A DNA stretch of 6,487 nucleotides, taken from a virus. Lineage: Duplodnaviria; Heunggongvirae; Uroviricota; Caudoviricetes. Under the pieces are notes generated by a model that was not told the DNA's origin, ran no database searches, and saw only the letters and a program-made list of their open reading frames with translations. The translations under genes were made by a program, and so were the position numbers. The stretch is from IMG/VR virus record IMGVR_UViG_2917886563_000003. The stretch is one strand, 5' to 3'. Each line of letters begins with the position of its first letter. Position 1 is the stretch's first letter. Of this stretch, positions 1-6,487 are shown in pieces.

Positions 1-2
1 TG

Positions 3-361
<359 letters not shown>

Positions 362-2234: not shown

Positions 2235-3506
2235 CTATAGCGTTGTTTTACGCCTTAAATTTGATTTTTTATTGATTGATAAGCCTTTCTCTATTTCAGG
2301 GTAGCGTAAAAGCTCAATATATTTTTTAAGCTCTACTGGAGAAGCTGCATTCTTGCTATATGTGCGGAATGTTTCTGTATTGCCGCGCTGATGGCCCAAA
2401 ATTAAGGCTATGCGGTCCTCTGGAATTTGATTTCGATCAAGAAGCTGTGCTACTCCGTGTCTCAGAGAATGAAACACTTTCCTTTCTGTTCCCTTTTCCC
2501 CTAAAGCCTTTCGTTTAGCTCTTGTAAATCGTTGTGTATGCCACGTAGAGCGTTTACCGTCAGCACGCTCTGTAATGCTGGCGTGATAGAACAAAAAGCC
2601 ATTGTGAGGCTTTTCACGAAGAGATAACACCAATGGAGTGATAAGGCTATGCACAGGCACAAGACGTGCCGCAGCTTTCGTTTTTCCCTGTGTGATTTCA
2701 AAACACAGCACACCTTCGATCTCTTTCACATCGTCTATTGTGAGACTTGCTATCTCGTTGATCCGCATCCCTGTATACATTCCGATCAGTGTTATATTTT
2801 GCATTTCTTCTTCATCAGCCAGCATTGAGAACACTTTTGCGAGTTCATCATTGCTAAAGGCTTCATAATTCACCTTGCTACTTTTAGCTTCAAGGCCGTG
2901 ACCTCGCCAAGGATTATCTTGTGGTGCATCGTGATAGCGGTTACGAGCAAGATCCCAGATCTGGGCTAATGCACTGATGTAGTTTTGTATTGTTTGTGGT
3001 GCTTTCTCATTTTTTAGGTCATCTAACCAGCTAGTAACAATAGTTCGGTTAACGTCACGAAGCTGAACATCGCGTTTATTCAGATGTTCTAAGAGCACTT
3101 CTACAGCCTTGTTTGTCTTTGATAGCGTGGTGAGTTTGCGCTTCTCGCTGAACTGGAGAATGTATTGATCACGCATCCTCAAGAGGGAAGGGCAACCAAT
3201 AGAAGAATCATTAAATGATTCAGATACTTGAAATACATATGTTCCAGCTTTCCGTAGTTCTGTAATAATTTGCTCGATCTTCGATGTTTTCTCACGTTGA
3301 GGCTTTAGCTTGTTACGTAGTTTTATCCATTCCAGCGCCACCGCATCACGGAACAACCGTGCTTCTCGAATATCTCTTGTACCCGTGCTCTTAACGTAGC
3401 TGCATCGCCCACCAAATAGATGACGCATATACTTAGGTATAGCGATCCTTACCAGATAGTTTCCGCAAGAATCTGAAATTAAATAGCGATCTCTCTTGAA
3501 ACTCAT
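2235..3506 (-). CDS. int: Site-specific tyrosine recombinase / phage-type integrase (423 aa)
   Basis: Minus-strand ORF with ATG at 3506-3504. The C-terminal catalytic domain has the tyrosine-recombinase signature: box I Arg (TGMRINEIASL), Lys in GKTKAAARLVPVH, box II HSLRHGVAQ, then LGHQRGNTETFRTYSKN carrying the nucleophile Tyr. The N-terminal region resembles an arm/core-binding SAM-like domain of P4-type integrases. Confidence 0.93.
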   Translation of the reverse strand: MSFKRDRYLISDSCGNYLVRIAIPKYMRHLFGGRCSYVKSTGTRDIREARLFRDAVALEWIKLRNKLKPQREKTSKIEQIITELRKAGTYVFQVSESFNDSSIGCPSLLRMRDQYILQFSEKRKLTTLSKTNKAVEVLLEHLNKRDVQLRDVNRTIVTSWLDDLKNEKAPQTIQNYISALAQIWDLARNRYHDAPQDNPWRGHGLEAKSSKVNYEAFSNDELAKVFSMLADEEEMQNITLIGMYTGMRINEIASLTIDDVKEIEGVLCFEITQGKTKAAARLVPVHSLITPLVLSLREKPHNGFLFYHASITERADGKRSTWHTQRFTRAKRKALGEKGTERKVFHSLRHGVAQLLDRNQIPEDRIALILGHQRGNTETFRTYSKNAASPVELKKYIELLRYPEIEKGLSINKKSNLRRKTTL

Positions 3507-3545
3507 ACAAACCCCGGCTATTTTGTCAGGGCTTTTGCACTTGAT

Positions 3546-3573
3546 AGTGTACAGTGTGAAGTGTCGATGTGTT
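3546..3573. repeat. Four tandem heptamers (AGTGTAC AGTGTGA AGTGTCG ATGTGTT) in the int upstream region
   Basis: Read directly from the sequence: three perfect AGTGT cores at 7-bp periodicity plus a degenerate fourth, 40-67 bp upstream of the int start codon and about 70 bp from the tRNA-like core. Confidence 0.5.
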
Positions 3574-3642
3574 GTTAGTTTTGCTTTTGATTCAAAGCAT
3601 TACAGGAGCTTGCTAGGCAAGCGAACGACCGTAGAAATACGT

Positions 3643-3669
3643 GCCGGTTCGAGTCCGGCCTTCGCACCA
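3643..3669 (+). other. tRNA 3'-end-like fragment (T-arm + acceptor 3' strand + CCA); putative att core or island junction, not a complete tRNA gene
   Basis: GCCGG-TTCGAGT-CCGGC forms a canonical T-stem/T-loop (GGTTCGAGTCC), followed by CTTCGCA-CCA. No complementary 5' acceptor strand, D-arm or anticodon arm can be folded from the ~90 nt upstream, so only the 3' part of a tRNA is present. It lies 137 bp upstream of int, on the opposite strand. Confidence 0.5.
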
Positions 3670-3682
3670 AAAGTATGTAAAT

Positions 3683-3707
3683 AGACCTCAACTGAGGTCT
3701 TTTTTTT
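3683..3707 (+). terminator. Rho-independent terminator immediately downstream of the tRNA-like 3' end
   Basis: Stem AGACCTC (3683-3689) / GAGGTCT (3694-3700) with loop AACT, followed by a run of seven T (3701-3707). Confidence 0.7.
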
Positions 3708-3974
3708 ATGCCTGAAATTCACGCCACACAAATCTTTTCCGCTGTTTTTTTCCAACTAACGTCAACCTGGTTCAATCCATATTAAATCCCTTAAGAATAC
3801 CGAACCAAGTATGTTTGCGCTTATCTATTAAGGATTCGGCTCTTTCAGAAAATCTAATCCATCCTCCAGGCACAATATTTATTGCGATCGTGCTCGCATC
3901 GTGGACAATGTTTAATCATAAGTAATATTTACATCAATGAAATCAATGATTTCTATTATGTCACGGAATGGAAA

Positions 3975-6197
3975 ATGGACAGCAATACATTGGGATTCAC
4001 TTCATACTGGCGCAACTCCTTAGCTGACGCCGAATCTGGTAAAGGAACGTTTTCACGTAAAGATATAGATTCATTCATTCGATGGATAAATATCACTGCA
4101 GGGCAGTTGGATGACGAGACTATTCGGGCATTTTTTGACGGTGAAGGGGAGTCGGTAAAAACCGTTGAAGTCGTGTTACGGCCCCAGGTGTGGAACCGCA
4201 TAGTAAAGCATGGCAAAGAGCAAATGGCAGGTGCCCCCGCAATTATCACGCCACTGGTTACCTCCGCTCTTCTGAATAGGGAAGGTTTTTTGTTTCCTGC
4301 TGCTTCAGCCACTATTCCCCGCGATCTGCTTGAACCTCTCCCTTCCGGTCATTTTTCTATTGGTGAGTTGGCTCAATATGACAAATACAAAACCACGCAT
4401 AGCACAGCCACCATTAATGAAGATGAACCAGAACATTACGAAGAAACTGACGAAGAGAAAGCGGAACGCCATGCCAGGTATCGTCAGCATTGGCAAAATT
4501 ATCTTCAACAGTCAGATAACCTTTTAAGAAACGTCGCTGGAAATTGGGTCGCTACATCTGAGCCATACGAACGGGCTGGATACGGTTATATTGTTAAAGC
4601 TAGCCAGCATGTAGGGGCCAGCGTTCATATCCTGCCTATGTATGACCATCTTCTGATGAGTCAGGTTAAGGTTCCGCTATTAACGCGTTTTGCCTCAAAC
4701 GAAATGGCTCCAGTGGAGCCACTTCTCGCTAAGAATGCGATGTTCTGCGAACGTCTGGGGCATTCCGGCGATAAGTTTCCGCTGGCAGTGGCGCAGCGCG
4801 ATGCCCTGAGCCATTATCTGACTCAACAGCAGGGTGATATGCTCGCTGTCAACGGTCCTCCGGGAACGGGTAAAACTACGCTGGTGCTTTCTATTATTGC
4901 CACCGAATGGACAAGAGCCGCACTTAATCAAACTGAACCTCCTGTAATTATTGCCACATCGACTAACAATCAGGCCGTCACCAATATTATTGAAGCCTTT
5001 GGAAAAGATTTCTCTACTGGTTTTGGCGTAATGTCTGGGCGTTGGTTGCCGGAGGTAATAAGCTATGGCGCTTATTTTCCGTCTAAAAGCCGTCAGGTTG
5101 AGGCAGCGAAGAAATACCAGACTGAAGATTTTTTTAACCGCGTTGAATCCCAGGAATATCTGGAAAAAGCCCGGGCCTTTTACCTTGAAAAAGCGGAGGC
5201 GGCGTTTGGAGCTGGAGAGTGCAATTCGCCAGAGCATGTAGTGACGCTTTTGCATGAACGTTTAACTTCACAGTTTATGCAACTTCAGCAAATCGAACCC
5301 GCATGGCGCAGACTCAATGATATCCGCCATGAACAGCGAGTCATCAGTGAGAATCTCGACCAGTATCTTCAGGACAAAAACACACTTCTTCTCAATATTG
5401 GTAATGAAATTTCACTTTTGGCCAGAGGTAAAAAGCAGTGGCAGCAATACCGTGCCGATGAGTCGCTTATGTATGCATTTTTGTCATGGCTCCCTGCTGT
5501 TCGTGCTAAACGCCATTACCAGATTAACCTCTTCCTGGACTCTACGTTCGGCACAAGAATGACAGCGTTCCAGGGAAATTGTCCCGAAGATATTGATAAA
5601 TTTATCGATAGTTTGATCGCTAAAGCACAACAAGAGCAGGCGGTGTGCCAACAGAATATCAACTTTGCGCAGGACATAGCCCGAAGCGAAATGGAAGCAG
5701 CAAAACAATGGCGCGGGTTGACTTATGCTCTGGGCTACAGGGGAGACGATGAGCTGAACCTCGCCGGAGCGGACGAGCTTGCCGATACTCAGATTCGTTT
5801 TCCAGCGTTCTTGTTAGCGACTCATTATTGGGAAGGTCGCTGGCTGATGGATATGGCGGCAATCGATAACCTGCAAAAAGAAAAAGGAATTACCGGGACA
5901 ACTATCGCCGAGGCTCGTTGGCTAAGAAGAATGAAACTTACTCCTTGTGTGGTAATGACCTGCTACATGTTGCCTTACCATATGAACAGGAGAAAATCTT
6001 TTGGTGGGGACAGAACATCGGATAATAATTATTTATATAACTTTGCCGATTTACTGATTGTCGATGAAGCAGGGCAGGTACTCCCGGAGGTTGCTGCGGC
6101 CTCTTTTGCATTGGCGAAGAAAGCACTGGTGATTGGCGATACGGAGCAAATAGCTCCAATCTGGAATGATGTAGCCCCCAGAAACACCGGACAGTAG
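3975..6197 (+). CDS. Large P-loop NTPase with SF1B (Upf1/Dna2/RecD-like) helicase motifs I, Ia, II and III and an uncharacterised N-terminal region; apparently 3'-truncated by the IS2-like insertion (740 aa as read)
   Basis: Open frame from 3882 (TTG) or 3975 (first ATG, preferred) to TAG at 6195-6197. Walker A GPPGTGKTT at 4854-4880; motif Ia-like PPVIIATSTNNQAVTNIIEAF; Walker B/motif II LLIVDEAGQ (DEAGQ at 6063-6077); motif III VIGDTEQIAPIW at 6129-6164. The ORF stops 10 codons after motif III with no motifs IV-VI, and the stop lies within or at the edge of the IS2-like left terminus. Confidence 0.8.
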   Translation: MDSNTLGFTSYWRNSLADAESGKGTFSRKDIDSFIRWINITAGQLDDETIRAFFDGEGESVKTVEVVLRPQVWNRIVKHGKEQMAGAPAIITPLVTSALLNREGFLFPAASATIPRDLLEPLPSGHFSIGELAQYDKYKTTHSTATINEDEPEHYEETDEEKAERHARYRQHWQNYLQQSDNLLRNVAGNWVATSEPYERAGYGYIVKASQHVGASVHILPMYDHLLMSQVKVPLLTRFASNEMAPVEPLLAKNAMFCERLGHSGDKFPLAVAQRDALSHYLTQQQGDMLAVNGPPGTGKTTLVLSIIATEWTRAALNQTEPPVIIATSTNNQAVTNIIEAFGKDFSTGFGVMSGRWLPEVISYGAYFPSKSRQVEAAKKYQTEDFFNRVESQEYLEKARAFYLEKAEAAFGAGECNSPEHVVTLLHERLTSQFMQLQQIEPAWRRLNDIRHEQRVISENLDQYLQDKNTLLLNIGNEISLLARGKKQWQQYRADESLMYAFLSWLPAVRAKRHYQINLFLDSTFGTRMTAFQGNCPEDIDKFIDSLIAKAQQEQAVCQQNINFAQDIARSEMEAAKQWRGLTYALGYRGDDELNLAGADELADTQIRFPAFLLATHYWEGRWLMDMAAIDNLQKEKGITGTTIAEARWLRRMKLTPCVVMTCYMLPYHMNRRKSFGGDRTSDNNYLYNFADLLIVDEAGQVLPEVAAASFALAKKALVIGDTEQIAPIWNDVAPRNTGQ

Positions 6198-6487
6198 CTG
6201 TATCTCCAGATAAGAGATAGGCTTGAATATATGTCTAACACTAACGCCAATTTTGAGATGACCGGGATCCTGTTAGGGCAAGAAGTCCGTAAACGTAAAA
6301 CTCCTCAGGAGAAAATCGCCATTATCCAGCAGAACGATGGAGCCGGGTATGAATGTCTCCCATGTCGCCCGCCTGCATGGTATCCAGCCCAGCCTGCTGT
6401 TTAAATGGAAGAAGCAATATCAGGAAGGCAGCCTCACCGCCGTTGCGGCCGGAGAGGAAGTCGTTCCTGCTTCTGAGCTTACAGCTG
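6172..6487 (+). mobile_element. Left-hand portion of an IS3-family, IS2-group insertion sequence; continues beyond the right window edge
   Basis: The region 6172-6230 contains TAGCCCCCAG...CTGTATCTCCAGATAAG, resembling the IS2 left terminal repeat as recalled (TAGACTGGCCCCCTGAATCTCCAGACAA). It is followed by an orfA-like reading frame whose product aligns with IS2 InsC. The left boundary is uncertain, somewhere in 6167-6195. Confidence 0.75.
6258..6487 (+). pseudogene. IS2-like transposase OrfA (HTH DNA-binding protein), apparently frameshifted; 3' end outside the window
   Basis: From ATG 6258 (or 6231) the frame reads [26 protein letters not shown], then runs into [22 protein letters not shown] (stop 6402-6404). 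From 6337 the +1 frame reads [50 protein letters not shown] to the window end. Both halves match IS2 InsC as recalled ([65 protein letters not shown]), implying a 1-nt insertion near 6336-6340 (GATGGAG). Confidence 0.65.

Follow-up and report, generated by a model that had tools for sequence, protein, structure and literature searches.

A one-base frame break in orfA of an ISEcl1-like element at a contig end of Escherichia strain E4736 is probably a sequencing or assembly indel

The orfA gene of an ISEcl1-like insertion sequence at the right end of a draft contig is broken by one extra A, and the break is probably (at about 0.8) a sequencing or assembly indel of an Ion Torrent draft, in which A was called as AA. 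This assignment draws on circumstantial evidence. The stretch of DNA analyzed, referred to here as the window, is the entire contig PDHX01000035.1 (6,487 bp; assembly GCA_004745245.1) of Escherichia cryptic clade II strain E4736. A preliminary description of the window had reported a frame switch inside the HTH region of orfA. That switch is present in the deposited sequence, and its cause is the one extra A.

Results

Identity of the element

The window holds the left end of the element; the right end and the orfB of this copy lie outside it. Its position is as follows.

6167 to 6487, plus strand: left 321 nt of an ISEcl1-like IS (IS3 family, IS2 group), from alignment of copies with differing flanks.

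The left boundary, T6167, was set by multi-copy alignment and by the uninterrupted yjhR of locus L013. The left inverted repeat is TGATGTAGCCCCCAGAAACACC, and the contig stops inside the element. The terminal repeats are of the form TG ... CA; the left end, TGATGTAGCCCCC, starts at 6167, and full copies end in ...GGTCAAGATCA. ISEcl1-type copies are 98.1% identical to the window stretch in nucleotides over 321 nt. These 98.1%-identical elements, labeled 'IS3 family transposase', are present in 149 complete E. coli genomes out of 5,426 and in 1,642 plasmids of PLSDB, most of which come from Klebsiella; one plasmid record names the element ISEcl1. The identity of ISEc48 to the window stretch is ~81%, and that of IS2 only ~73% and confined to the orfA part.

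ISEcl1 (AF342826), first described in Enterobacter cloacae, is a 1,336-bp member of the IS2 group of the IS3 family (PMC10425158; PMC8805313; PMC5001619). It shares the position of orfA and the OrfA amino-acid sequence with the window copy, and its left inverted repeat is that of the window except for one base. The window copy is a diverged isoform of it, with five marker substitutions in the stretch in addition to the extra A. The organization of the IS2 group, with orfB next and in the -1 frame, is common to ISEcl1 and IS2, and IS2 InsC is 75% identical to ISEcl1 OrfA in a gapless alignment of residues 5-122. The match to IS2 InsC that had been reported from the sequence is therefore real, at 75% identity, but the element is a relative of ISEcl1 and not IS2 itself. 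On these comparisons 'IS2-like' is right at the group level, and 'ISEcl1-like, IS2 group' is the better designation.

The frame break in orfA

Both parts of orfA that the window contains can be read, in two different frames.

6231 to 6404, plus strand: ORF as deposited, 57 aa from the ATG at 6231 or 48 aa from the ATG at 6258, from the ORF list.
6258 to 6335, plus strand: orfA codons 1-26 in the original frame, from translation; PGAP starts the intact gene at the equivalent ATG.
6333 to 6334, plus strand: one-base insertion, AA for a single A, from DNA alignment; it causes the +1 frame change.
6337 to 6486, plus strand: continuation of orfA, residues 27-76 of intact OrfA, in the +1 frame, from translation and Pfam.

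When the translations are compared, window residues 1-25, read from 6258 on, are the same as residues 1-25 of intact OrfA. Codon 26 is AAC (N) in the window versus ACG (T) in the intact gene, a change caused by the extra A. Residues 27-76, read from 6337 on, are identical to those of intact OrfA and cover HTH helices 2-3. In the DNA alignment with three intact copies, the window has CAGCAGAACGATGG and the intact copies have CAGCAGACGATGG, which is gapped as CAGCAG-ACGATGG. Intact copies on E. coli chromosomes and plasmids carry both parts in a single frame. The preliminary description had placed the switch at about 6336-6340; the extra A is at 6333/6334, 3-7 nt upstream of that estimate.

After the break, frame 1 runs on out of frame to the TAA at 6402-6404. 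The ORF at 6231 to 6404 has no match in Pfam, and neither of the frameshifted products, of 57 aa and 48 aa, is on record by exact look-up in the protein collection. Intact OrfA (122 aa) matches HTH_Tnp_1 (PF01527) with E = 5e-19 over residues 11-88 and profile positions 4-74, and the downstream piece of the window alone matches the same profile with E = 7e-11 over positions 21-59. As mapped by these matches, the break falls within the HTH_Tnp_1 DNA-binding domain, in the interval between helix 1 and helix 2. Judged by the translations, the frame switch is not a product of chance, since both pieces are identical to intact OrfA and there is an HTH_Tnp_1 match.

The programmed -1 site and the orfA start

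It had been stated that the break is not the programmed -1 frameshift site of the family, and the position of that site agrees with the statement: the homologous site would lie near 6578, about 245 nt downstream and beyond the window end. Homology to intact copies identifies CGA AAA TGG as this site, the ATG of orfB there being in the -1 frame. A slip on A-AAA agrees with the length of the joined CDS, annotated at 1,208 nt, and PGAP labels ISEcl1 copies 'programmed frameshift'. The putative slip site of ISEcl1-like elements is A-AAA-T (CGAAAATGG), whereas IS2 (L032) has GCAAAAAAGTGG at the corresponding position; the slip site of IS2 is A6G. At 6325-6345, where the sequence was read directly, there is no slippery motif.

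An orfA that genuinely starts at the ATG at 6337, which the preliminary description had named as grounds for abandoning its frameshift, was considered and rejected. The residues encoded upstream of 6337 are conserved in IS2 InsC and fall inside the HTH_Tnp_1 profile, and PGAP starts the intact gene at the equivalent of 6258. The gapless 75% identity of OrfA and InsC over residues 5-122 also shows that the start is not at 6337.

Source and ends of the contig

The E4736 draft (PDHX00000000; read set SRX3200104) is an Ion Torrent assembly, built from single-end reads 35-400 nt long at a coverage of about 100x. MIRA 4.0.2 and SPAdes 3.6.0 were the assemblers; their output was merged and then finished with the help of a reference and by hand, repeats at contig ends being used for manual gap closure (PMC6639607). 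The window ends reach 361 nt (left) and 321 nt (right) into IS3-family elements, about one read length, and the extra A is 154 nt from the contig end, within the repeat. The element at the left is the following.

1 to 361, plus strand: right end (...GTTGACCACTACA) of an IS911-like IS3-family element, from sequence comparison with E. coli copies.

The IS911-like element sits in a phage tail gene and makes the left contig end. L011 (VATT01000059.1) begins 18 nt inside this element and shares both IS junctions with the window; L004 (Logan SRR8835208) has the yjhR-IS junction; both stop 19-30 nt into the ISEcl1-like IS. That these sister contigs break 18-30 nt into the same elements shows them to be multicopy repeats in the lineage. 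As the sister assemblies break at the IS boundary, they are silent on the A at the same locus.

The isoform and its other copies

Five substitutions, in addition to the extra A, separate the window from ISEcl1: one in the inverted repeat, at 6180, and the others at 6314, 6405, 6450 and 6483. The four coding substitutions of the isoform in the stretch are all synonymous. Noise at the contig end was considered as a source of the five substitutions and rejected, in that L012, L020 and L021 have exactly the same five changes and the coding four are synonymous. L012, an IMG/VR contig recovered by a gapped pattern search of IMG/VR, is a full copy with all five marker bases and a single A. L020 (Logan SRR6148301) and L021 (Logan SRR26188679) were found by exact look-up of the isoform OrfB. 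All three are the same as window positions 6167-6487 over 321 nt, except that they are without the extra A. L020 and L012 share an insertion site and so represent one insertion seen in two datasets.

Over its full length (L012), the isoform is 95.5% identical to ISEcl1 in nucleotides. At the protein level its OrfA is the same as that of ISEcl1, and 14 of the 293 OrfB residues differ (~95% identity), with 29 synonymous and 14 non-synonymous codon changes. In the loci with the identical isoform, the 293-aa OrfB has the Pfam domains HTH_21, rve (the DDE transposase domain) and rve_3. With isoform level set at about 95% nucleotide identity or higher, values of 95.5% for nucleotides and ~95% for OrfB are at the border for a separate ISfinder name. 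By its marker bases, the window copy belongs to a distinct ISEcl1-related isoform. Since the coding changes of the isoform in the stretch are synonymous and its OrfA is unchanged, the lineage was under purifying selection, and the extra A is either very recent or artefactual.

In the insertion shared by L012 (681-683) and L020 (679-681), orfA codon 108, directly 5' of the putative A-AAA-T slip site, is changed from CGA to TGA; translation of orfA would end two bases short of the orfB ATG, which would leave no means of making an OrfAB fusion. This copy is probably defective. Codon 108 is intact in L021. L023, a metagenome contig (ENA ERZ12815794), has an ISEcl1 copy with a 5-nt deletion at the equivalent of window 6267-6271, an independent frame-disrupting indel in the N-terminal part of orfA. 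A 96-aa 'MEPGM...' product reported by gene callers was considered as a mark of the same frameshift elsewhere and rejected; the contigs that encode it start inside the IS, have an IS truncated by another element, or carry the 5-nt deletion of L023.

Direct target repeats of 15-17 bp flank seven of eight full-length ISEcl1-type copies (L001, L002, L012, L014, L015, L016 and L017), and the repeat predicted for the window is at 6151-6166. Direct repeats of the IS2 group are given as 5 bp (PMC10425158), far shorter than the 15-17 bp here. An ISEcl1 insertion with 14-bp direct repeats has been mentioned (PMC10913469), so long repeats have been seen before; a limited look at the literature found no discussion of their mechanism.

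Neighboring genes

The ISEcl1-like element interrupts a helicase gene.

3975 to 6166, plus strand: 5' part of yjhR (helicase), interrupted by the IS, 98.4-98.9% identical to annotated E. coli yjhR.

The junction of yjhR and the IS was checked against the intact yjhR in L013. The yjhR fusion ORF ends at the TAG at 6195-6197 inside the IS. The A at 6180 (T in ISEcl1) changes an in-frame TGA to AGA in the fusion frame; truncated YjhR is therefore five codons longer and runs to the TAG in the IS. The 740-aa truncated YjhR is also found in L004 (SRR8835208), and the same junction is in L011. Sister strains with this yjhR::IS insertion are those of assembly GCA_005781225.1 and run SRR8835208. The identical 740-aa product in SRR8835208 implies that the same isoform is at the same site there.

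Farther upstream, at 2235-3720, a 423-aa tyrosine integrase (DUF6538 and Phage_integrase) adjoins a tRNA-Leu 3' remnant and small phage-like genes, one of which encodes a Dit-like protein. ARAGORN finds no complete tRNA gene in the window, only the tRNA-Leu 3' remnant being present. Related loci have the same integrase at the edge of a compact phage-satellite-like element that carries a capsid gene and a resolvase.

Private differences of the contig

Two further one-base differences from relatives were found in homopolymer runs.

11 to 14, plus strand: G4 run in the IS911-like element, from alignment; G5 in E. coli copies.
3700 to 3707, plus strand: T8 run in the terminator hairpin after the tRNA-Leu 3' remnant; T7 in L004, L005, L006, L009 and L011.

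The T8/T7 difference is the sole difference of the window from L011 over 5,842 nt and from L004 over 2,560 nt. From this comparison, T8 is likely a run-length error of Ion Torrent sequencing. Nothing but the G4/G5 difference separates the 361 IS bases from the E. coli copies, whose matches are 99.7% identical over a 360-nt query. The private differences in 6.5 kb are thus three, and all are one-base run-length changes (+A, T7 to T8, and G5 to G4); against the nearest relatives there are no private substitutions in the 6.5-kb contig.

In Ion Torrent data, short homopolymers are over-called and long ones under-called (Bragg et al. 2013, PMC3623719). Site-specific high-frequency indels occur at ~1 per 1-2 kb, are mostly A/T insertions or C/G deletions, and lead to frameshifts in assemblies, and substitution errors are rarer than indels by a factor of about ten (PMC3623719). 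The window is alike in pattern, in that its +A extends an existing A and stands beside a +T and a -G with no substitutions. Its indel density, ~1 per 2 kb, is close to the 1 per 1-2 kb of Bragg et al., whose rates are for reads versus a reference, whereas the window is an assembled consensus.

Uniqueness of the extra A

Comparison with other copies, in the expectation that a sequencing error would leave them one nucleotide shorter at this point, had been proposed as a test, and all the other copies examined have a single A. The single-A version is present in 13 of the 32 fetched loci, that is, in L012, L020, L021 and 10 other fetched copies, and the one locus with AA is L010, the window. Megablast with a 41-nt probe across the AA, designed so that every 28-mer seed spans it, gave no match in PLSDB (72,556 plasmids) or among the 5,426 E. 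coli complete genomes; the control probe with a single A matched 1,470 plasmid records. The AA version had no exact match in the genome, viral and metagenome contig collections, and the isoform-specific pattern had no match in the genome contig collection. Within these collections, the extra A is unique to the window contig.

Discussion

The preliminary description left the choice between a defective copy and a sequencing indel, and that pair of outcomes holds, with the evidence on the side of the indel. The sequencing indel is favored because the data are from Ion Torrent, the site is at a contig end in a repeat, private homopolymer indels occur at two other places in the contig, and no other copy examined has AA. 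The proposed event is a single-base insertion error at 6333/6334 during Ion Torrent sequencing or assembly. The DNA of E4736 cells would then be without the extra A, and the orfA of this copy would most likely be intact and in one frame. The intact element would make OrfA, together with OrfAB by the usual -1 frameshift farther downstream.

Some observations run against a sequencing or assembly error. A change from a 1-mer to a 2-mer is not the classic long-homopolymer error, and the T7 to T8 change over-calls a long run, for which under-calling is more typical. As a rough estimate, some 25-30 reads with an anchor in unique yjhR sequence are expected to cover 6333, so a random miscall should be outvoted; only a site-specific high-frequency error or an artefact of the MIRA/SPAdes merge would be expected to survive such coverage. 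IS copies also decay, as the orfA nonsense codon of the L012/L020 insertion illustrates.

If the one-base insertion were real, orfA would be a pseudogene encoding a 48-aa peptide with HTH helix 1 only, neither OrfA nor OrfAB would be made, and, more speculatively, the copy could be mobile only by transposase supplied in trans. The extra A is in the sequence as deposited, defective IS copies are common (the other insertion of this isoform has its orfA nonsense codon), the IS is multicopy in the lineage, so that a source of transposase in trans probably exists, and a 1-mer to 2-mer miscall at good coverage is unusual for random flow errors. This reading is nonetheless unlikely, if by no means negligible. 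The data are from Ion Torrent, the site is near a contig end within a repeat, and the A is missing from all copies in the large collections searched as well as from the three datasets that share the identical isoform. Real differences among bacterial sequences are mostly substitutions, and three indels with no private substitutions, two of them at other homopolymers, are an unlikely pattern for real divergence. Should the A be real, the copy would be non-autonomous, and a truncated OrfA lacking helix 1, which might start at the internal ATG at 6337 or at 6349 (the latter preceded by GGAG), might interfere with transposition of sister copies; this is a rather doubtful suggestion.

An assembly chimera, in which reads from two slightly different IS copies, or from related elements, went into the contig end and the indel arose when the two assemblies were merged, finds some encouragement in the MIRA/SPAdes merge, in the manual gap closure that used contig-end repeats, and in the position of the site in a multicopy repeat near the end. 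It is very improbable as a separate cause, since the 321 nt are otherwise perfectly matched to one isoform, without a mosaic of ISEcl1-type and isoform-type bases, and no known copy has AA to act as donor. In practice it is a sub-case of the artefact. Programmed recoding that regulates OrfA, by +1 ribosomal frameshifting or transcriptional slippage, has only the frame change itself in its favor; recoding is known in the IS3 family, but it is -1 and at the orfA/orfB overlap, and the -1 site of the family is ~245 nt downstream of the break. The site, AUC CAG CAG AAC GAU GGA, is without a slippery run, an in-frame stop or a rare codon, and has no Shine-Dalgarno-like stimulator upstream. All other copies, including those of the identical isoform, have a single frame and do not need recoding. 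The site sequence, lacking any slippery or stalling motif, and the other copies together exclude programmed +1 recoding for practical purposes.

Frameshifts in the E4736 assembly that are unconfirmed by reads or independent data should not be taken as biology. This caution is strongest near contig ends and inside repeats, and it probably extends to the 15 sister assemblies of the same project. As an artefact, the extra A would leave an ordinary, intact IS copy whose orfA counts as a 'pseudogene' in the draft only through an annotation error brought on by Ion Torrent chemistry; as a real base, it would make the copy one more decayed IS. Either reading is ordinary and carries little biological weight.
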